Part shown: piece by piece, positions 5,968 to 21,548 of the stretch | Layout: the number at the start of each line of letters is the position of its first letter | Position numbering within the stretch: the first letter of the stretch is position 1 | Virus record (IMG/VR): IMGVR_UViG_2671180884_000031 | Length of the DNA: 23,679 nucleotides | Strand: one strand, 5' to 3' | Origin: a virus | Taxonomy: Duplodnaviria > Heunggongvirae > Uroviricota > Caudoviricetes | Translations under genes and position numbers: made by a program | Notes under the pieces: generated by a model | Told to the model about the DNA's origin: nothing | The model's database searches: none | Seen by the model: the letters and a program-made list of their open reading frames with translations, nothing else

Positions 5968-6021
5968 ACGGCGGTAGAGCAGTCACGGAGTAAAACTGAT
6001 ACTGCCAAACGTCACCAGAAA
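5968..6021 (-). ncRNA. dicF: DicF small regulatory RNA (ftsZ-targeting antisense sRNA)
   Basis: Minus strand reads TTTCTGGTGACGTTTGGCAGTATCAGTTTTACTCCGTGACTGCTCTACCGCCGTTTTT, near-identical to recalled K-12 DicF, ending in a GC stem plus T-run; lies ~170 bp upstream of dicB as in K-12. Confidence 0.8.
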
Positions 6022-7901: not shown

Positions 7902-8406
7902 ACAGGCTCGTGAGGCTCTGGATGCCTGGATATGTCGACCAGGAATGACACAGGAGCAGGCGACGATATTAATCACTGAAGCATTCTGGGCTTTGAAAGA
8001 GCGCTCGAACATCGATGTTCAGCGTGTCACATATGAAGGTGGCGCGGTTGATCAGCGAGCGCTTAGCGTTAATCGAGTGAAGATATTTGAACGCTGGAAG
8101 GCTATCGACACCAGGGATAAGCGTGAAAAGTTCACAGCGCTAGTGCCTGCAATTATGGAGGCTATCCGGATTAGTGATTTCAGGTTGTATCGTGAAATTA
8201 GTGACGGAAAGAGCATTACGTACATGATCGCTGGGTTAAATAAAGAATATGGCGATGTGGTGGAGTCCGGACTGCTTTTTGCAGATCCTGCCGTTGTAGA
8301 TCGTGAAACTGACGAACTTATAGAAAAAGCAATTGCTTTCAAGCTTGCGTATCGACAGCAATACCAACAAAAAGCTGGATGGAATTATGAGTCTTCTTTT
8401 TGCTGA
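7885..8406 (+). CDS. YdaT-like prophage protein (CII-like regulator / toxin YdaT family)
   Basis: 173-aa ORF overlapping the dicC 3' end by 17 bp; KREKFTALVPAIMEAIRISDFR resembles the Rac YdaT segment QREKIQKLIPAILAILPRELR. Confidence 0.5.
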   Translation: MKITPEQAREALDAWICRPGMTQEQATILITEAFWALKERSNIDVQRVTYEGGAVDQRALSVNRVKIFERWKAIDTRDKREKFTALVPAIMEAIRISDFRLYREISDGKSITYMIAGLNKEYGDVVESGLLFADPAVVDRETDELIEKAIAFKLAYRQQYQQKAGWNYESSFC

Positions 8407-9392: not shown

Positions 9393-9794
9393 GTGGCAAA
9401 AGTTTTTACACAAGAAGAGCGGGAAAAAATTAAAGGGCAGGTGGTGGAACTCGTGCGCCAGAGTGGTCGTGAGACGTTACGGCAACTGGAAGCTAAAACA
9501 GGTGCGACTAGATATCTGATGAGCGTTCTTGCCAGAGAGCTGGTAGCCAGTGGCGATGTATACAACTCCGGCTACGTGTTATTCCCGTCTGAACAGGCGC
9601 GTAAGGACTGGCAAAACGCCCGCAAAAAACTATCGAGGGCAAAGGTGAAGAAAACAGCTGTGGTTGATCCGGACCTTATCTGGTCGTTACCTGATGGAGA
9701 AATACGTCGCTACGACAGTCGCCTAAACATAATCTGTCGCGAGTGCCGGATGAGTGAAGTTATGCAGCGCATACTGGCATTTTATCAGGGATAA
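9393..9794 (+). CDS. Hypothetical protein (GTG start), possibly replication-associated
   Basis: 133-aa ORF with an AGGGGG SD 5-6 nt upstream of GTG 9393; immediately follows the O-like gene. Confidence 0.45.
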   Translation: MAKVFTQEEREKIKGQVVELVRQSGRETLRQLEAKTGATRYLMSVLARELVASGDVYNSGYVLFPSEQARKDWQNARKKLSRAKVKKTAVVDPDLIWSLPDGEIRRYDSRLNIICRECRMSEVMQRILAFYQG

Positions 9795-9897
9795 TGTTAG
9801 GTATTTTAGACGTTACTAGATTAAAAAGCATTAGTTCAGGAGTGAATTGACATTCTCATTTTTCATGGCACAGGGTAGATCTGGCGTGGTTGTCCGC

Positions 9898-9918
9898 TTT
9901 GTGCCAGGAGCGGACGTT
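9898..9918. repeat. att-like repeat copy A (left boundary of cargo module 1)
   Basis: TGTGCCAGGAGCGGACGT (9900..9917) recurs exactly at 12452..12469 and in degenerate form at ~13998..14015. Confidence 0.5.
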
Positions 9919-10007
9919 GCTAATGGCATGATGTATGAACCAATGGAGAACCGATCATCTATACACATATAGATCCCTAACGAAAATATTGTTTTCACTA
10001 GCCCTGT

Positions 10008-10044
10008 AATGGAAGCGTTAATTTTATATTCTAACGCTTCCATT
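10008..10044. repeat. Perfect 13-bp inverted repeat (hairpin) downstream of the SDR gene
   Basis: AATGGAAGCGTTA (10008..10020), 11-nt loop, TAACGCTTCCATT (10032..10044); no flanking U-tract on either strand. Confidence 0.4.
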
Positions 10045-10096
10045 GAGCCTACCACTTTGGCAAAGCAATTCTTACACTTCAAAATAATGTGCTTTT

Positions 10097-10843
10097 TTAT
10101 TCAGCTAAATAACCGCCATCGATTGGATAAACGCCTCCGGTACAGAATGTAGAACTGTCTGACAGCAAGAACAATATGAAGTCTGCTATTTCCTGCATTT
10201 TTGCCATCCTTTTCATAGGGTGGCTATTTGCGAAACTACTTACAATATTTTCAGGGAACTCACTCATTCTTTGGGTTTGGACATAGCCCGGAGCGACTGC
10301 ATTGATTCGAATGCCTTGACATGCAAACTCTAGCGCTGCGGTTTGGGTTAAACCGATTATACCATGTTTAGCCACGGTGTAAGGTGCTAATCCAGGAATG
10401 CCAACCAGACCATTTACTGCAGATAAATTAACTATAGATCCACCAAACTTCATCATCTGGGGTATTTCATATTTTAGGCAGTGAAAAACGCCGCTCAATG
10501 AGGTAGCAATAACCTTATCCCAGTTTTCAACTGTCTGCTCTGTTATATTTTTACCATGTTCACCTGTTAAGCCTGCATTATTTACAGCATAATCAAGTCT
10601 GCCGAAATGTTTGATAACCTCATCTATCATTTGCCGTACTTGTTCGGGCTGTGACACATCACATCCGATCCCCATGGCTTGTTGTCCCTGTGAAGATAAT
10701 TGTTCCGCTTTTTGTTTAGCCTGTTCTGACGAGCGGGATACAATAACAACTTTTGCACCATGCTTATGTAATTGCTCTGCGACGGCCTCACCTATACCTG
10801 TAGTGCTTCCTGTTATAACGGCAATTTTATTCTGGAAATTCAT
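10097..10843 (-). CDS. SDR-family (short-chain dehydrogenase/reductase) oxidoreductase
   Basis: TGSTTGIG cofactor-binding motif, NNAG, catalytic YTVAKHG (YxxxK); start at ATG 10843 with a GGGGGTGG SD. Confidence 0.8.
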   Translation of the reverse strand: MNFQNKIAVITGSTTGIGEAVAEQLHKHGAKVVIVSRSSEQAKQKAEQLSSQGQQAMGIGCDVSQPEQVRQMIDEVIKHFGRLDYAVNNAGLTGEHGKNITEQTVENWDKVIATSLSGVFHCLKYEIPQMMKFGGSIVNLSAVNGLVGIPGLAPYTVAKHGIIGLTQTAALEFACQGIRINAVAPGYVQTQRMSEFPENIVSSFANSHPMKRMAKMQEIADFILFLLSDSSTFCTGGVYPIDGGYLAE

Positions 10844-10914
10844 AACCACCCCCTATGAAGTAGAATTGAGTCTTTCATCTGGGATAGTATACAAACCATC
10901 TGTGACAGTTTTTG

Positions 10915-11604
10915 TCAGTACTCTTTCCCCTCGCAGATCCCTTCTTTTATTCTCCATTTTTTCAATAAAATTGTCCTGCTTTCACTATAGTTGGAGTCAA
11001 GTTGCACAATATCTTCAATTTTGTCAGTTCTAAAATGACGAAAATCATTTCTCATCTCGCACCATGCAACCAAAAGCCAGCACGATTCCATGTATACCAA
11101 TCCGATGGGCCATATGACTCGTGAAGTGTAAGAATCTTTTTTATCACAATAATTTATTTTGATTTTCTTTCTTTTTTTTATAGCATTGCGAATGTCTTCA
11201 AAAAAAATCTCATTGTTTTCTGATGGACCGATCAGATAGGATTGACTCTCAATAAGATTTTTCAATTCACTGGGAATGACGGCGTGTATTTTCGCAAGCG
11301 CATTCTTTGCGGTAATTTTGAAATTATAATCTGTATTGTGCGATACCCAATTTAACCCAAGTGTAATAGCATTAATTTCTTCATGAGAAAGATTTAAGGG
11401 GGGCAAATGAAAGTCAGATTTAACAATATAACCAATTCCAGCACCACCTTCAATGCATACTCCTTGATGCTGCAGCGTTTTTATATCTCTGTAAAGGGAG
11501 CGTACACTTATTCCCAATCTTTCTGAGAGGATGGATGCTGTGATCGGATATCTTTGTGCCCTTAATATTTGTAGTAACTCGAGAAGTCTTTCTGTTCTAG
11601 TCAT
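10915..11604 (-). CDS. YafY-family transcriptional regulator (N-terminal HTH plus WYL-type ligand-binding domain)
   Basis: From the internal Met: MTRTERLLELLQILRAQRYPITASILSERLGISVRSLYRDIKTL..., a DeoR/YafY-type HTH followed by a WYL-like region; directly upstream of and co-oriented with the SDR gene. Confidence 0.6.
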   Translation of the reverse strand: MTRTERLLELLQILRAQRYPITASILSERLGISVRSLYRDIKTLQHQGVCIEGGAGIGYIVKSDFHLPPLNLSHEEINAITLGLNWVSHNTDYNFKITAKNALAKIHAVIPSELKNLIESQSYLIGPSENNEIFFEDIRNAIKKRKKIKINYCDKKDSYTSRVIWPIGLVYMESCWLLVAWCEMRNDFRHFRTDKIEDIVQLDSNYSESRTILLKKWRIKEGICEGKEY

Positions 11605-11822
11605 GTTGATAAATCCATTTTGAGGCGATTTCTTAAAGCATCTGTTAGATAAACATATTAGTACAAAGCAAGTGTACATGGCTAAGCTGAACTGCTACCG
11701 ATGATTAATACAGCGCTATGTTCGTAATGCGTACATAAGCGGTGATCATGAGTGTAAACATCCGCTTTTCGCTTATAAGGGACAACCATACTCAAATTTC
11801 CCACATTGCAGGAGATTTGAGT

Positions 11823-12425
11823 ATGAATACGTCACCGTGGAACAAAGACCGTATCATCGGCCAAAAAAGACCACTTCAGATATCTCATATCTGGGGGATC
11901 CGAATCCGGCTTGAACTGGAAGGTAAAACGCGCGATTTAGCTCTGTTCAATATGGCCCTGGACAGTAAGCTTCGAGGCTGTGATCTGGTCAAACTCAAAG
12001 TATCGGATGTGGCATATGGTAGTTCGGTTTCAAGCAGAGCAACGGTGTTGCAACAGAAAACCGGTAGCCCTGTGCAATTCGAGATAACCAAAGGGACAAG
12101 AGAAGCTGTTGCTGCATTGATAAAGCTTGGCAATTTGCACAGTAAAGACTTCTTGTTTCGGTCTCGGGTCGGAACTAACCAGCACATTTCAACCCGGCAA
12201 TACAACCGAATCTTTCATGGGTGGATAGAAAAACTTGGTCTCGAAGGTTCACTTTACAGCACACATTCAATGAGAAGAACAAAACCTTACCTGATCTACA
12301 AGAAAACCAAGAATCTCCGGGTGATCCAACTTCTGTTGGGTCATAAGAAACTGGAAAGCACAGTCCGTTATCTGGGCATTGAAGTCGATGATGCGTTAGA
12401 GATCTCTGAATCGATTGAAGTCTAA
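11823..12425 (+). CDS. Short tyrosine site-specific recombinase (~200 aa, phage-integrase family catalytic domain)
   Basis: AGGAG SD before ATG 11823; C-terminal HSMRRT...LLGHKKLESTVRYL carries the R/H-x-x-R ... Y catalytic signature. Confidence 0.65.
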   Translation: MNTSPWNKDRIIGQKRPLQISHIWGIRIRLELEGKTRDLALFNMALDSKLRGCDLVKLKVSDVAYGSSVSSRATVLQQKTGSPVQFEITKGTREAVAALIKLGNLHSKDFLFRSRVGTNQHISTRQYNRIFHGWIEKLGLEGSLYSTHSMRRTKPYLIYKKTKNLRVIQLLLGHKKLESTVRYLGIEVDDALEISESIEV

Positions 12426-12433
12426 GGTTGTCA

Positions 12434-12469
12434 GGGCTGCAACAGCAGCCCTGTGCCAGGAGCGGACGT
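12434..12469. repeat. att-like repeat copy B: hairpin GGGCTGC-AACA-GCAGCCC plus TGTGCCAGGAGCGGACGT core
   Basis: Begins 9 nt after the recombinase stop codon; hairpin plus a core identical to copy A. Confidence 0.5.
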
Positions 12470-12576
12470 CTAGTTCGCTGAACCACAAAAAGTCGTTTCT
12501 AGTTATATTACTGGCTCATTAGTATCTTTATGCGATAATATTTCATACAACCAAAATTATGATGAAGGGAGTTCAA

Positions 12577-13698
12577 ATGGCAATTACGGTCTATTCTCGT
12601 ACATTCAAAAAGGAATTGGACATGGTTCAATTGTTAAACCATTACTCATCAGATAACGCACTCAATTTCAGTGATTTCAAGGAATTTGTTGCCTTTGATG
12701 CAGAGTGCCCAATTTGCAATGTAAGCGGTGCGATTGTTGTTTCAGAAGGTTATTCGAAAAGAACAAATAAGATAGTCAGCCAATCTCATTTTGCGTTTAG
12801 AACAAAAGACGGAACTGATGCACACAAAGTATTTTGCGATCATTACAGTGGTGATGATAAGCAAATAGATTCATCAAGGGATGGTTTTATAAAATTCGGC
12901 ACCTCAGGTTCTGAGATTACAAGTATAATTCGCGAGCTTGTATGTAGAGGTATTGAACATGATGAGTTCAATCAGGAAGATATTCGAAACATGCGGCAAT
13001 GGTTTACAGAATTACGCCAGTCAGGCACTTTTTCTGTTAACTATAGCCCTCACATGATCAATCTAATAAGGGCCAGCATGTATTCCCGTAAGGGAGAAAG
13101 TAAATATATTGTAGATGAAGAGAGGAAAAATAAATCTTGGTTTGATATAAACGATGAAGTGTATCGTTCGTTAAGATTCAAATATCCATCATTGATGATC
13201 GACATGACTAATGAAAATAATTCTGTTTTCTATAATCTTGTGAATAGTACCACATTTACTAAACAAGCACATCGATTAGTAGCACGAGATCGAGGTTATC
13301 AGGTTTATGATAGAAGGTTGCTTAAAGAAAAATATGAAGCAACGATAAGAGTTGCACAAAAAATAACCAGGCATCACGAATTTCTTTTTAGGAAAATCAG
13401 GGGTATATCCGCTGTTAAAAAAAACAACCCCCTTTTGGCTGTATCTGCCTTGCTTCTTTTTGTCTCGGACTGGAATGAAACAACTGCAATCAACAAATTC
13501 ATCAAATTGTGTGGTGTAGGGAAATCTAAAAATAATGATGAGGGGAATGTAATTGGCTTAAATCCCTTTATTCATTACGATGTCTGGAATGTTATTCATC
13601 AACTTAAGGATTTAATGGTTACACTTCCAGACTTCTCAAATCTTGATGAAGAATTTGACAGAGAAAAATCCAGATTAATTGAACTTTACAAGCTCTAA
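12577..13698 (+). CDS. Hypothetical protein, 373 aa, AT-rich cargo gene; candidate accessory/anti-phage function
   Basis: GAAGGGAG SD 5 nt before ATG 12577; N-terminal CPIC ... HKVFCDH cluster suggests a metal-binding site; no family recognised by eye. Confidence 0.7.
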   Translation: MAITVYSRTFKKELDMVQLLNHYSSDNALNFSDFKEFVAFDAECPICNVSGAIVVSEGYSKRTNKIVSQSHFAFRTKDGTDAHKVFCDHYSGDDKQIDSSRDGFIKFGTSGSEITSIIRELVCRGIEHDEFNQEDIRNMRQWFTELRQSGTFSVNYSPHMINLIRASMYSRKGESKYIVDEERKNKSWFDINDEVYRSLRFKYPSLMIDMTNENNSVFYNLVNSTTFTKQAHRLVARDRGYQVYDRRLLKEKYEATIRVAQKITRHHEFLFRKIRGISAVKKNNPLLAVSALLLFVSDWNETTAINKFIKLCGVGKSKNNDEGNVIGLNPFIHYDVWNVIHQLKDLMVTLPDFSNLDEEFDREKSRLIELYKL

Positions 13699-13740
13699 CA
13701 TAAACTAGCAGGCTGCGTATACAGTCTGCTAATTTTCATA

Positions 13741-13970
13741 GTAAAGACTTCATGCTTCAGTCTCGAGTTGGAGCTATCCGTCACACATCACCCAGGCAAT
13801 TCAACCGAAATTTTTCATGGGGGGTAGAGAAGTTTTGTCTCGAAGATTTGCTTTACAGCATACTAATCATTGAACCTCTGTTGAACCATAAGAAACTGGC
13901 AAGCACAATCCGTTGCTTGGGCATTGAATTCGACGATGCGTCGTATAGCTCTGACTTGAACAAAACATAA
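13741..13970 (+). pseudogene. Degenerate duplicate of the tyrosine recombinase 3' end (remnant)
   Basis: About 75-80% nucleotide identity to 12142..12425 with an internal deletion; translation ...SRVGAIRHTSPRQFNRNF...LLNHKKLASTIRCLGIEFDDA parallels the recombinase C-terminus. Confidence 0.6.
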
Positions 13971-13978
13971 GGTTTTTA

Positions 13979-14015
13979 GGGCTGCAACAGCACCTCTGTG
14001 TCATAGGCGGAAGTT
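13979..14015. repeat. att-like repeat copy C (degenerate)
   Basis: GGGCTGCAACAGCACCTCTGTGTCATAGGCGGAAGT parallels copy B in the same position relative to the recombinase remnant. Confidence 0.45.
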
Positions 14016-14311
14016 AACAAACATTAAAATCTCTAAATCTGTAGGGATCAGACTCCTTCTATAAAAGGATACTGTTCATATCCTTAGTTGTATATAGGTG
14101 TGTTTAGAGTATTAGGATGCTAGTTTTGAAAATTAATTTTTTAAACATATTGAATTTTTTAAGAATTGGGAATAGTGTATAGCTTTGTCATGGCGGATTT
14201 TTTCTCTTCAAGTATTTATTTGAACACTACTTCTTGCACCTGCAAGGTTACAATATCGTGTAAATTTGTTCACAAAGACATAGATTATAATTTTTACTTA
14301 AAGGAAATTCA

Positions 14312-15565
14312 ATGTCAAAAAATCTCCCGGTTTTATTAAGCTCGCCATCAACAACTAATTTTCCTGCAACAGTTAATACTGAAATAGAATTCCTTTCGCA
14401 AGCTAGAAAGTTGTTAGATTCTGGCTTCCCTGATCATGCTCTTTTAGATATATGGAATGCATCCATTCATAATCTTAGGCGGCGAATTGAGGCTTATGGT
14501 TTAGACTTATTCCTTTCCGCAATAAAGGATGATAGTGGTCGTAAAAAATATGATAAAGATGGTGAAACAATAAACGAGAGATGGTCAGGTGTAGATGATT
14601 TAGTGCTAATAAGTGGAGCCACCAAATTAGGGGTTCTGCATAAGAAAGCTGGAAAATCATTAGAAATGATCAATTGGATGAGAAACCATGCCTCTCCAGC
14701 CCATGCAAGTGATAGTAAAGTAGAGTCTGAGGATGTGTTTGCTTTGGCTCTTATGCTCCAGAAGAATTTATTCGAATCTGATATGCCAGACCCTGGACAT
14801 TCGCCATCTGGATTATTTGAACCCATAAAAAAATCTGAACTATCAATTGAGAGCATAGACTTACTTAAAGATCAAATAAGAGCATTTAAGCAAGCTGATA
14901 TAAGAATAACATTTGGATTTTTATTGGATTTAATAACTAAGGGGGAAAATCCTGCTTATGTTAATGCTAGCAAGTTGTTTGAACAAGCATGGGAAAGATC
15001 TAATGATGACCTTAAAAAAACAGCGGGGGAAAGATATCACTCATTTATGCTGGAGCCCGAATCGGATACAAGTGAGGATAAAGGAGCAAAAATAAGAATT
15101 TTAGAGACTTTAGTAAAAGTTAATGGTGTGAAATTTATACCTGATGCTGCTAGGGCAAGTTTATACAGACATGCGGTTAAACAGCTAGCTAAAGCTAAGG
15201 ATACATCTTACGGCTGGAATGATGAAGAAAGAGCAGCCAAGGCACTTATACAATTTGGACCTCATGTTCCATCTATTGCTTTTGAAGATGTATATCAAGA
15301 AATACTTACTGTTTGGGTGGGGAATTACTGGGGAAGATCTGATGCACATTTAGTACTTCAACCATTTTTAGATGTGTTAAATAGTAATCAATTGATGGCT
15401 CTCTCACGGTTGTTCGTGGAGAATGAAAGAGCAAATTCAGAACTGGTGTCATCAAGGCCCAAAAGAAGAGCAATAGAATTACTTGAGATAATAAAAAATA
15501 ATCTAACAATTCAAGCAAGCATTGATGAAATTGATAGGATTATTTCTGAAATTGATAAAATGTAA
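14312..15565 (+). CDS. Hypothetical protein, 417 aa, with HEPN-like R-x6-H motif; candidate abortive-infection/defence protein
   Basis: AAGGAAA SD before ATG 14312; helical N-terminal region with WMRNHASPAH (R-x6-H) resembling the HEPN active-site motif; AT-rich; own terminator downstream. Confidence 0.7.
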   Translation: MSKNLPVLLSSPSTTNFPATVNTEIEFLSQARKLLDSGFPDHALLDIWNASIHNLRRRIEAYGLDLFLSAIKDDSGRKKYDKDGETINERWSGVDDLVLISGATKLGVLHKKAGKSLEMINWMRNHASPAHASDSKVESEDVFALALMLQKNLFESDMPDPGHSPSGLFEPIKKSELSIESIDLLKDQIRAFKQADIRITFGFLLDLITKGENPAYVNASKLFEQAWERSNDDLKKTAGERYHSFMLEPESDTSEDKGAKIRILETLVKVNGVKFIPDAARASLYRHAVKQLAKAKDTSYGWNDEERAAKALIQFGPHVPSIAFEDVYQEILTVWVGNYWGRSDAHLVLQPFLDVLNSNQLMALSRLFVENERANSELVSSRPKRRAIELLEIIKNNLTIQASIDEIDRIISEIDKM

Positions 15566-15577
15566 TTTATTTGCAAT

Positions 15578-15610
15578 TAAGCCATGCTTTTTAGGTGGCT
15601 TATTTTTTTT
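15578..15610 (+). terminator. Rho-independent terminator after the 417-aa gene
   Basis: AAGCCA ... TGGCTT stem followed by an 8-T run, 13 nt after the stop codon. Confidence 0.55.
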
Positions 15611-15882
15611 GAATCTACTACTTATATTGATATTAGCAATGTAATTGCTAAAGTATTCCTAGCCCACTATTCATCTAAATATGGTTGTCGAAAGGCCCGC
15701 TTCTCGCTCAAAGCGGACTAGAAGGTTAGCTTGTGTCGGACTTTGCGTATTAAATGACTAGTGGTTGAGCCCCATTTCCACAGAAAAAATCAGAGAAACT
15801 ATACCCAATAGTTGTATTGAATCACTGACGAGACAGCCTCATATTCATCAGGACTGGTGTACGTCCAATACAGGAGGTTGTG

Positions 15883-15972: not shown

Positions 15973-16183
15973 TTTCACATTGGCGAGGTAACGGTAGTTA
16001 AGTAGAATGGCTGCGGGTGCTTGAGGCTATCTGCCTCGGGCATGAACACCAACGGCAGATAGAGAAAAGCCCCAGTTAACATTACGCGTCCTGCAAGACG
16101 CTTAACATTAATCTGAGGCCAATTTCATGCTAGACATATGTAGGTTAGCCTCTTACGTGCCGAAAGGCAAGGAGAAGCAGGCT

Positions 16184-16339
16184 ATGAAGCAGCAAAAGGC
16201 GATGTTAATCGCCCTGATCGTCATCTGTTTAACCGTCATAGTGACGGCACTGGTAACGAGGAAAGACCTCTGCGAGGTACGAATCCGAACCGGCCAGACG
16301 GAGGTCGCTGTCTTCACAGCTTACGAACCTGAGGAGTAA
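16184..16339 (+). CDS. hokD: Hok-family small membrane toxin HokD (RelF)
   Basis: MKQQKAMLIALIVICLTVIVTALVTRKDLCEVRIRTGQTEVAVFTAYEPEE matches recalled HokD; AAGGAGAA SD; an in-frame upstream ATG at 16127 could give an extended form. Confidence 0.8.
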   Translation: MKQQKAMLIALIVICLTVIVTALVTRKDLCEVRIRTGQTEVAVFTAYEPEE

Positions 16340-17933: not shown

Positions 17934-18243
17934 TTTAGGGGACAGAAAAACTCCTTAATACTGATAACCTGGTGCACCATACACACGTTCCTGGAGAAAA
18001 CTACTTTTTTGATAGGGTTGAAGGTGGCTGGATGTCTAAAATAAACATTGCTTCATATGTTCAACTATGAGTTAATGACTGTGTCGGTTTGAAGAACAGA
18101 CGATATACGAAGTAGTTTACTAAAGCAGTTCTCATTTCAGGTGTTATTCACTTATTCCTTCTTTGAGTCTCTCCAATTAAGTACGAAGTCGTTTCTGTTA
18201 TGCAAACCATTTATGCCGAAAGGCTCAAGTTAAGGAATGTAGA

Positions 18244-18459
18244 ATGTCAAATAAAATGACTGGTTTAGTAAAATGGTTTAACGCTGATAAAGGTTTCGGC
18301 TTTATTTCTCCTGTTGATGGTAGTAAAGATGTGTTTGTGCATTTTTCTGCGATTCAGAATGATAATTATCGAACCTTATTTGAAGGTCAAAAGGTTACCT
18401 TCTCTATAGAGAGTGGTGCTAAAGGTCCTGCAGCAGCAAATGTCATCATTACTGATTAA
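18244..18459 (+). CDS. cspB: Cold-shock protein CspB-like (71 aa)
   Basis: [53 protein letters not shown]...; cold-shock-domain RNP motifs; long 5' UTR typical of csp genes. Confidence 0.8.
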
Positions 18460-18740
18460 AATTCATCGCTCGTCTGTATACGATAACGAAGAAGGCTGAT
18501 GCCTGAGTAGAGATACGGACAGAGTAGTGAATATTGGATCTCTTTAATAAAAAGTAAGGAGGTCCAATACATGAAACAATGGCCAGCATATTTGGCAAAA
18601 TCTTAATCAGGAAAAGTATGCTAACCATTGTGGTGAAGTGCAGGTTTGCTGCATGAATAGTTTCACAGCAGAAGCTAACTGCTGGCATCGCAAAACAAAG
18701 TGCGTAAGTGGATGACTCCCACAAAAAGCACCACAATCTC

Positions 18741-19428: not shown

Positions 19429-19739
19429 TCCAATGACTCAAGACTATGAACTGGTTGTGAAAGGAGTCCGTAATTTTGAGAATAAAGTTACGGTAACTGT
19501 AGCCTTACAGGACAAAGAACGCTTTGACGGTGAAATTTTTGGCCTGGATGTCGCCATGGACCGTGTTGAAGGAGCTACGCTGGAGTTTTATGAGGCAGCA
19601 GCCAGAATGAGCGTCCGGCAAGTCTTCCTGGAAGTAGCAGAAAAATTGTCAGAAAAGTTGAGTCTTATCTGCAGCATCAGTACTCCTTTAAGATTGAAAA
19701 TCCTGCCAATAAGCACGAGCGTCCTCATCATAAATATCT

Positions 19740-20767
<1,028 letters not shown>

Positions 20768-21129
20768 GGTAATATTAAATCGGAACATTTACATCGCGGA
20801 ATGTAAAATTTAAATAAAAAGGACTCTTCCATGAGCCAAAATTCCTGAAATCTTAAGGGTAAGATAAAAGGTCTTAATCAGAATGACACGTTTTATTAAT
20901 AAATAAAGCTATTCTTTCATTGCTGTGTTTTTCTTTACAAAAGTAATCCTTGCTATGGGTGGTTAATCATGCGTTAATGGTGTTCTGGTTTGTTACAAAT
21001 TTATCTGAAGCAGTCATTGTTATAATTTTATTATTTGTACCTCTTGAGATTTCCTTGTTGGTTTTTCTCTCTGATATTTTTTTTCGGACCATTCTGCCCA
21101 AGGGCTAATTTCTTCAAAAGGTAATAATT

Positions 21130-21342
21130 ATGTCTAACAAAATGACTGGTTTAGTAAAATGGTTTAACCCTGAAAAAGGTTTTGGTTTCATCACGCCGAA
21201 AGATGGCAGCAAAGATGTGTTTGTCCATTTCTCAGCAATTCAGAGCAACGATTTCAAAACATTAACTGAGAATCAGGAAGTTGAATTTGGTATTGAGAAC
21301 GGACCTAAAGGTCCTGCCGCTGTTCATGTAGTGGCGCTTTGA
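21130..21342 (+). CDS. cspI: Cold-shock protein CspI (70 aa)
   Basis: [70 protein letters not shown] matches recalled CspI. Confidence 0.85.
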
Positions 21343-21548
21343 GGTAGACAATATTACAAACCATATTCACTTTAGATGCCCGTGTTGTCATGGTTCCCAG
21401 TATAGAACATCATCTTTTGATGTTTCTGACATGAATCCTTTCGGGGCAAAATGTATCTTTTGTAAATCAATGATGATTACATTTGATAATATTTCACAAT
21501 ACTTAAATGCTAGCCGTCTGTCGTTGGATTTAAAAAAGTGAAAATGAA

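Follow-up and report, generated by a model that had tools for sequence, protein, structure and literature searches.

Why should the 3' end of a tyrosine recombinase gene recur, in decayed form, behind the gene that follows it? The question is raised by the window analysed here, i.e., the whole stretch of 23,679 nucleotides of the IMG/VR virus record IMGVR_UViG_2671180884_000031, which is part of a Qin-type lambdoid prophage of Shiga-toxigenic Escherichia coli (STEC). It carries an intact gene for a tyrosine recombinase of 200 amino acids (aa; 11823-12425, plus strand), followed by a gene for a 373-aa protein (12577-13698, plus strand; start as annotated by the NCBI Prokaryotic Genome Annotation Pipeline, PGAP). 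An earlier note on this DNA had reported the repeat and read it either as the footprint of site-specific integration into the end of a gene or as a partly deleted tandem element. From our analysis, the duplicate is probably the 3' stump of a second recombinase module at a junction within an array of site-bounded cassettes which the recombinase would exchange. The duplicate itself is an ordinary junction scar. The larger structure to which it belongs, a multi-cassette array with two classes of core sites spanning 9888-15718, was not described in the earlier note.

The repeat is genuine: positions 12120-12469 (recombinase 3' end, hairpin, and core) recur at 13719-14014 with 74-80% identity and a 54-bp deletion. 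A MAFFT alignment of 12130-12500 with 13725-14040 gave a mean column identity of 80%, with one 1-nt indel and one 54-bp gap, which corresponds to window positions 12274-12327 and is missing from the downstream copy. The ungapped pairs are 12120-12264 with 13719-13863 (74%) and 12328-12469 with 13873-14014 (77%), and each half of the repeat was found by blastn with E = 1e-25. The 23-nt string of hairpin plus core, AGGGCTGCAACAGCAGCCCTGTG, is exact at 12433, occurs with two mismatches at 13978, and was found in none of 100 shuffles. The similarity is not one of low-complexity sequence. The coordinates given earlier are good to about 20 nt, as the repeat starts at 12120/13719 and not at 12142/13741.

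The downstream copy (13719-14014, plus strand) is the relic of a second recombinase module, comprising the 3' part of the gene, the hairpin, and a degenerate site, and it starts at about nucleotide 300 of the recombinase coding sequence (about position 352-360 of the module). Its translation is frameshifted, Arg-I and Lys are absent, H148 and R151 are lost with the 54-bp deletion, and Tyr183 is replaced by Cys; to judge from these lesions, the copy is a dead pseudogene, a fossil rather than a functional repeat. The stump is 75-82% identical to every enterobacterial recombinase allele; among themselves, the alleles reach 90-97%. Being equidistant from all of them, it is a decayed copy and not a foreign allele, and we rejected its origin as an allele of a divergent lineage on this ground. 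In a different prophage (locus L002), a 373-aa gene with 90% identity has behind it a stump truncated at the same point, which is 93.5% identical to the recombinase and does not have the 54-bp deletion. The common truncation point is indicative that the truncation happened only once and that gene and stump have travelled together since. The earlier suggestion of a partly deleted tandem element was hence close to right, with the downstream copy as the truncated and decayed 3' end of a second recombinase module.

The 373-aa gene, the stump, and a 417-aa gene form one block (12452-15719), which is 99.8% identical in L001, an unrelated chromosomal E. coli island beside tRNA-Ser with trbJ and trbL, and in about ten genomes. 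No intact recombinase adjoins the block in the genomes sharing it, nor is there one nearby in L001. In both L001 and L002, the block starts at 12448-12452, inside the 24-bp core and downstream of the recombinase stop codon, and the overlap of block and recombinase module is a short palindromic site at 12452-12469 (TGTGCCAGGAGCGGACGT). These positions bear on classic integration into the 3' end of the recombinase gene, in which the copy of the gene end carried by an element would have crossed inside the gene and displaced the original end downstream. A direct repeat of the gene 3' end does bracket a 1.25-kb insert, and such a footprint is common for phages and islands at tRNA genes or gene ends. 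The homology of the insert, however, starts past the stop codon and not at 12120; 12120-12469 and the remainder of the recombinase module run colinear, at a uniform 93-97% identity, in hundreds of genomes; and L002 holds the 373-aa gene and the stump without an intact recombinase gene upstream. A breakpoint after the stop codon and within a short palindromic site rules out integration into the gene end with target duplication, which we thus hold to be very improbable. The earlier conclusion that the 373-aa gene lies inside a structure generated by recombination is supported.

The 200-aa recombinase passes the PF00589 model (65.3 bits against a cut-off of 27.1; residues 35-184) with its catalytic domain only, and there was no Pfam match to an N-terminal SAM-like (Phage_int_SAM) core-binding domain. 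The catalytic residues R51, K79, H148, R151, H174, and Y183 are present and invariant in 25 homologues; they were assigned from motif context in the translation, the AlphaFold2 model being poor (mean predicted local distance difference test, pLDDT, 51.8, from an alignment of 78-97% identity only). Neither PDB sequences nor PADLOC defence models matched the protein. Its top NCBIfam matches were Xer models, yet it scored far below the XerC/XerD equivalog cut-offs (TIGR02224, 47.5 against 335 bits; TIGR02225, 29 against 330 bits), and below those of FimB/FimE (NF007371, 24.4 against 222 bits; NF007370, 16.7 against 221 bits). No integron-integrase model of NCBIfam was passed, the best being XerA/'integron integrase' (NF040815, 53.9 against 220 bits). 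The IntKX group (Smyshlyaev et al.) was considered as its class and rejected, as IntKX are integrases of integrative and conjugative elements (ICEs); the tyrosine-recombinase classification paper has no such group under the names checked.

The recombinase gene is the centre of a module of about 700 bp, with edges at 11757-11770 and 12467-12469 (megablast, 718 records of 882 genomes) and with unrelated DNA directly outside both edges. An inverted repeat in its 5' untranslated region (11787-11825, plus strand; 15 nt, 93% complementary; minimum free energy -19.9 kcal/mol) pairs the Shine-Dalgarno (SD) sequence GGAG and the ATG of the gene. When homologues were folded sequence by sequence, the SD was found paired by such a hairpin in 19 of 20 diverse homologues from Gamma- and Betaproteobacteria, with stems of differing sequence. 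This upstream anti-SD hairpin suggests translational silencing of read-through transcripts, and it resembles the way in which insertion sequences (e.g., IS10 and IS200) keep such transcripts from being translated. Behind the stop codon lies a 3' hairpin, AGGGCTGC-AACA-GCAGCCCT (12433-12452, plus strand), which abuts the spacer of the core site there; no T run follows, and it was not called terminator-like. Distant recombinase homologues have a hairpin of other sequence in the same place after the stop codon. RNAalifold, run on MAFFT alignments of these 5' and 3' hairpins, returned at best a weak consensus structure, since the hairpins cannot be aligned.

The grammar of the core sites was obtained by reading the junctions and then scanning 22 enterobacterial loci. 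The 24-bp consensus consists of GTCCGCTwT, a 6-bp spacer, and GrAGCGGAC, i.e., two 9-bp inverted arms around the spacer; the arms can also be written GTCCGCTYY and RRAGCGGAC. Class A sites have the spacer GTGCCA (plus strand in the window) and class B sites, which are inverted, the spacer GAGCGA, so that the classes differ at two spacer positions. When sites were called by their arms alone, the spacer was GTGCCA in 29 and GAGCGA in 25, and the other eight were single-base variants. The sites occur at 34 per 100 kb in the loci and at 0 in shuffled sequence, and 97 of 106 obey the A(+)/B(-) polarity when the recombinase is set on the plus strand. Intervals from A to B (n = 32; 0.6-9.8 kb) are the cassettes, and neighbouring cassettes in related loci are joined by a doublet of B, 18 nt, and A, which makes a palindrome of about 66-86 bp. 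Intervals from B to A are either doublets (n = 18; 39-42 nt), with an 18-nt linker of consensus CTTCAGCTCAGT..., or hold the recombinase gene (n = 4; 682-684 nt). When folded, roughly half of the doublets form a single long hairpin that has two 1x1 mismatches at the spacer, and the rest two small hairpins of similar energy; folding as single strands is thus possible without being diagnostic.

The window can be read with this grammar from end to end. The left edge of the array is S_a, a class A site (9888-9915, plus strand; GGTT-GTCCGCTTT-GTGCCA-GGAGCGGAC) which matches the 24-nt consensus perfectly, and near it, at 9917-9926, stops the homology of the prophage backbone to the Qin loci L006 and L090. 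The left end of the recombinase module is the class B site S_0 (11760-11787, minus strand; GGTT-GTCCCTTAT-AAGCGA-AAAGCGGAT), whose sharp junction xxx|TCCGCT... is common to six loci. Its right end, and at the same time the left crossover point of the block with the 373-aa gene, is the class A site S_1 (12444-12467, plus strand; AGCAGCCCT-GTGCCA-GGAGCGGAC), in which the inner arm is replaced by the 3' hairpin. The recombinase gene thus sits inside one doublet (S_0, recombinase, hairpin, S_1). S_2, a degenerate class A site in the stump (13989-14012, plus strand; AGCACCTCT-GTGTCA-TAGGCGGAA), scores too low to be called in the site scan. On the right, the array is bounded by the class B site S_3 (15695-15718, minus strand; GTCCGCTTT-GAGCGA-GAAGCGGGC). 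Here the homology to L001 ends at 15719 and the Qin backbone, as in L006 and L090, resumes at 15696-15697, and the 23 shared bases (15697-15719) are S_3 itself. In L002, the 373-aa gene and its stump are located behind a B-A doublet. The same locus has, at 7955-7978, a site in B position with the spacer GTGCGA, half class A (GTG) and half class B (CGA), which is the sole case seen and may represent a mutational step between the classes or the product of A x B recombination.

If cassettes are exchanged at these sites, homology between loci should break there. Of 197 distinct ends of homology blocks in 23 loci, 59 lay within 10 nt of a predicted site, against a mean of 2.2 and a maximum of 10 in 1000 trials of random placement; most other block ends are ends of recombinase modules, whose sites are under the scan threshold. 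Three blocks that hold no recombinase end exactly at sites in both of two unrelated replicons, viz., the window block, a 3.7-kb BCCT-DUF2254 cassette (99.7% identical between the chromosome in L001 and the IncY plasmid pEco-CTX-M-15, L091), and a 1.0-kb cassette (common, at 92% identity, to the Erwinia aeris contig L014, 4179-5189, and L091, 7686-8696). L091 is an E. coli phage-plasmid of the IncY type that carries CTX-M-15. L006 and L090 have the outer A and B sites of the window at the same place in the prophage, with other contents in between, which in L090 are a single cassette without recombinase. Of 5426 complete E. coli genomes, none had the array flanks joined directly, i.e., the empty site that the earlier note had proposed to look for; in L089 and K207-3, larger deletions were found in its place.

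These breakpoints also bear on a simpler explanation, in which two small autonomous elements, each of cargo, recombinase, and one attachment site, accreted in tandem and the second decayed into a remnant like a cis-mobilizable element (CIME), a defective element which attachment sites still flank, with no wider cassette system involved. Tandem accretion at attachment sites is well known for ICEs, integrative and mobilizable elements, and tycheposons, and the stump does imply that two recombinase modules formerly stood in tandem. However, most cassettes in the 22 loci lack both recombinase and stump and still run from A to B; elements with a single attachment site would not be expected to give two discrete classes of sites or doublets with a constant 18 nt; and the recombinase-less cassette of L090 occupies the same prophage position. 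We therefore consider accretion alone unlikely.

In the Qin prophage of K-12 MG1655 (L093, NC_000913.3; 5982-6996, which is 1645981-1646995 of the record), flxA lies between a class A site (GTCCGCTTT-GTGCCA-GGAGCAGCC), located within the annotated ydfV open reading frame, and a class B-like site (GTCCGCTAA-GAGCAA-GAAGCGGAA). It looks like a cassette of the same system with a polarity opposite to that of the window, and no recombinase remnant was found near it by blastn.

The recombinase module is present in 882 of the 5426 E. coli genomes (about 16%) and on 85 plasmids, 47 of them conjugative, and had no megablast match among deposited phage genomes. In a search of 5.8 billion proteins, the top ranks were filled by recombinase homologues of 78-97% identity. 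When one genome per species was scanned, homologues of 60-99% identity were found at no fewer than 547 loci in Enterobacterales, Alteromonadales, Pseudomonas, and many Burkholderiales; an identical protein (WP_001305361.1) is shared by E. coli ATCC 25922 and a Pantoea ananatis plasmid. Behind the stop codon of distant homologues comes a hairpin of unrelated sequence, and G(T/G)GCCA-RRAGCRGNC follows it, although some of the loci inspected have no recognisable motif. In Pseudomonas-type relatives, the gene lies between inverted GTCGCTAAC-CGGCCA-RAAGCGGNC sites. In L040, L047, L049, and other Pseudomonas/Stutzerimonas loci, both flanking sites have the spacer CGGCCA in common, and the 3' hairpin includes the inner arm GTCGCTAAC; L047 has a second site pair of module size, 718 bp apart (13630 and 14348). 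That the site sequence changes with the recombinase lineage is the main argument, though an indirect one, for the recombinase acting on the sites.

The same comparisons allow the sites to be weighed against two better-known uses of such enzymes. The first is a Fim- or Hin-like invertase that would flip the S_0-S_1 segment or the cassettes as a phase switch, with the duplicate as an incidental feature. With its 200 aa, the recombinase is as small as FimB/FimE and has a weak FimE-type match (NF007371, E = 1.8e-5), its gene lies between inverted sites, and the flanking sites of its Pseudomonas-type relatives share one spacer. The enterobacterial flanking sites, in contrast, carry different spacers, the flanking genes are not consistently arranged for a promoter switch, and an artificial junction of the inverted module, built for the ATCC 25922/Nissle context, was found in 0 of 928 genomes (assemblies only, in which rare switching could escape notice). 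An invertase is thus very unlikely. The second is that the sites are dif-like targets of the host XerCD, with the 200-aa recombinase as a passenger or accessory. Modules between inversely oriented core sites are also the layout of pdif modules of Acinetobacter (PMC9455709, PMC7399989), and the Xer models are the best NCBIfam matches of the recombinase. Against this, the near-symmetric arms (GTCCGCT/AGCGGAC) are unlike the XerC/XerD arms of E. coli dif, and the site always abuts the recombinase gene and varies in sequence with the recombinase lineage, which leaves little credence for host XerCD.

An 86-nt doublet consensus matched 1907 of the 5426 E. coli genomes (about 35%) at one to five places each, with matches over at least 80% of its length in 684 genomes. 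None of the doublet matches listed coincides with an annotated feature, and genomes with doublets are about twice as many as those with the recombinase. Unannotated doublet-like sequences in so many genomes could be taken for selfish palindromic repeats kept by a single-copy enzyme, as in repetitive extragenic palindromic doublets and their associated tyrosine transposases (REPINs and RAYTs), whose coincidence with cassette boundaries would stem merely from a preference for intergenic positions. Indeed, doublets of inverted repeats, along with a single-copy enzyme gene between inverted copies, mirror the REPIN-RAYT layout. Their low copy number, however, with all copies in accessory regions, the breaks of synteny exactly at the sites, and an enzyme that is a PF00589 tyrosine recombinase and not an HUH Y1 transposase make this explanation highly improbable.

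The repeat, the sites with their array grammar, and the breakpoints at the sites are observed, as is the pseudogene state of the stump; we infer from them that the recombinase is the exchange enzyme, and likewise the substrate strands or DNA forms and the order of events. In the cassette-array reading, the recombinase would synapse like with like (A x A and B x B). A single crossover between a circular cassette, bearing the regenerated doublet, and an array site would lead to insertion, and the reverse to excision, as in integrons. If two DNA molecules crossed over twice (A x A and B x B), they would exchange the segment from A to B, as in recombinase-mediated cassette exchange. Such two-crossover exchange would explain why there are two conserved spacer classes, why A comes first and B last in the arrays, why empty sites are not seen, and why A-B cassettes are stable. 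As for the window, the 373-aa cassette would formerly have abutted another copy of the recombinase module. A deletion may then have taken the B site of that copy and roughly the first 350 nt of the module, so that the 3' stump with hairpin and A site was kept as the right boundary of the 373-aa cassette. Decay of S_2 in the lineage of the window and L001 would have fused the 373-aa and 417-aa cassettes into one composite unit, which presumably entered the prophage by crossovers at S_1 and S_3.

Several points weigh against this reading. The activity of the recombinase on the sites is deduced from adjacency and co-variation of sequences only. Some junctions are single A or B sites (e.g., L001 at 7993 and L092 at 12272-15856), so the grammar is not strict, and a canonical B-18-A doublet is missing from the window, where the S_0-recombinase-S_1 module and the stump make up the junctions. 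On the side of the recombinase, the arms of S_0 and S_1 match the consensus poorly, and both sites may be weak. Homologous recombination through the conserved 700-bp module could explain some of the swaps beside the recombinase. Finally, one account of how the second recombinase lost its 5' part failed. As GTCTGCT precedes the stump, a recombinase-mediated deletion between the B site and a pseudo-site in the gene was considered; it was rejected, since GTCTGCT belongs to a terminator-like hairpin behind the 373-aa gene (13706-13731, plus strand; terminator scan), whose 3' arm it forms and within or just past which the stump begins. The equivalent in L002 reads CAGCCTGTT, and the terminator hairpin is also present there with compensatory changes.

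Comparison with known systems places the array close to integrons without making it one. As in integrons, arrays of promoter-poor cassettes with single or few genes lie beside a tyrosine recombinase gene, and each junction is a composite imperfect palindrome in which two simple sites, consisting of two inverted arms and a spacer each, are inversely oriented. The 18 B-18 nt-A doublets and 32 A-to-B cassettes in the 22 loci have the integron layout; the analogy is one of layout, and by sequence the sites are not attC. There is also a distinct recombinase-proximal site (here S_1), and the recombinase-less arrays (L090, L001, and L002) are comparable to clusters of attC sites lacking integron-integrases (CALINs). 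Unlike IntI (about 320 aa), however, the 200-aa enzyme has no core-binding domain and is too small for the IntI-specific insertion; its gene lies inside the composite site and reads towards the cassettes instead of divergently; and conservation of the sites extends to their sequence (about 90% in arms and spacers) instead of being one of structure only. Crossovers occur in both halves (A and B), the cassette genes are in both orientations, and no Pc-like promoter was identified.

With the pdif modules of Acinetobacter, the system shares inversely oriented short core sites with 6-bp spacers, modules common to plasmids and chromosomes, and a mechanism of movement that is deduced in both cases. 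It differs in its dedicated recombinase within the array, in a site sequence unrelated to dif, in having two spacer classes, and in that each of two neighbouring cassettes keeps its own pair of sites (hence the doublets) where pdif modules share one. The cassette system therefore shares its layout with integrons and pdif modules but fails both definitions, i.e., an IntI integrase for the former and dif-like sites of XerCD for the latter. FimB/FimE are similar in size (about 200 aa), in having the catalytic domain only, and in short inverted repeats as actual or presumed targets, but the recombinase falls far short of the family cut-off (24 against 222 bits), the genomes compared showed no inversion polymorphism, and the link here is with gene-content variation rather than a promoter switch. 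Cassette exchange with heterospecific lox or FRT sites uses inverted sites with common arms and incompatible spacers, which block self-excision and inversion and permit double like-with-like exchange; it is a laboratory design, whereas a natural counterpart, with incompatible A and B spacers, is only deduced here. CIMEs and tycheposon satellites resemble the segment around 13719-14014, where a truncated recombinase gene beside a retained attachment site lies between two cargo segments, though most cassettes here never had a recombinase of their own.

No published description of the system was found in a search of full texts, site sequence included, with most subscription journals outside its coverage. 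In all, the cassette system is probably a new variant of recombinase-driven cassette platforms. We propose tentatively, as a possibility which may well not hold, a widespread and previously undescribed cassette platform of Gamma- and Betaproteobacteria, in which a minimal 200-aa recombinase, nested in a composite palindromic site, would capture or swap cassettes between heterospecific inverted 24-bp sites in prophages, plasmids, and islands, including those of E. coli Nissle 1917 and ATCC 25922 and the flxA footprint of K-12.

The array is set in a prophage of recognisable type. The window is identical in E. coli 2012EL-2448 (NZ_CP027586.1) and two further human isolates, one named STEC2018-553, and carries a Qin-type gene set, with rspB, a lambdoid integrase and excisionase, dicB/dicA/dicC, a replication gene, and a DUF977 gene in its left part, and hokD, rem, ydfU, an antiterminator, and lysis and cold-shock genes in its right part. 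Rfam matches at 5969-6020, 16015-16189, 18083-18475, and 20984-21369 are DicF, the hokD sok antisense RNA, and two cspA-type thermoregulator leaders (cspB and cspI), consistent with the Qin assignment; the scan of 9.7-15.8 kb gave no Rfam match. The DUF1327 gene (ydfR; 19433-20273), upstream of the lysozyme gene, is frameshifted according to the RefSeq annotation, which is indicative that the prophage is defective at least in part.

The 5.8-kb stretch between the DUF977 gene (9393-9794) and hokD, in the early region of the prophage, is absent from the other Qin prophages compared, and its genes are, in order, a short-chain dehydrogenase/reductase (SDR) and a WYL/helix-turn-helix (HTH) regulator (both on the minus strand), the 200-aa recombinase, the 373-aa gene, the stump, and the 417-aa gene. 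Cassette 1, between S_a and S_0, holds the SDR oxidoreductase (10097-10849) and the WYL/HTH regulator (10915-11604), assigned from Pfam, PADLOC, and PGAP; the two make up a divergent cassette. This cargo is rare (3 of 5426 genomes). The WYL protein matches CRISPR- or defence-associated WYL models (PADLOC, E = 4e-61). In cassette 2, the 373-aa protein matches phrog_12525 and had no Pfam, PADLOC, or NCBIfam match; its confident AlphaFold2 model (pLDDT 89.7) gave no significant fold match in the PDB. C44, C47, H83, and C87 are invariant across 42 homologues, and these residues suggest a zinc site in the N-terminal beta domain. The 417-aa gene (14312-15565, plus strand; PGAP) matches phrog_27609 only, and its protein had no PADLOC match.

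For the duplicate itself, the practical lesson is to read a duplicated recombinase 3' end as the scar of a junction and not as an attachment-site duplication inside a gene. If the inference about the enzyme holds, the combination of a 200-aa recombinase and two natural, heterospecific classes of 24-bp sites would be an attractive tool for genome engineering. The cassettes encode mostly unknown proteins, some of them nuclease-like, and are located in prophage regions rich in accessory and defence genes, so that the sites could mark accessory functions for mining. If true, the platform would be a further cassette-exchange system beside integrons and pdif modules, with a minimal enzyme of its own, and would account for precise swaps of gene content in lambdoid prophages, phage-plasmids, conjugative plasmids, and islands of enterobacteria.

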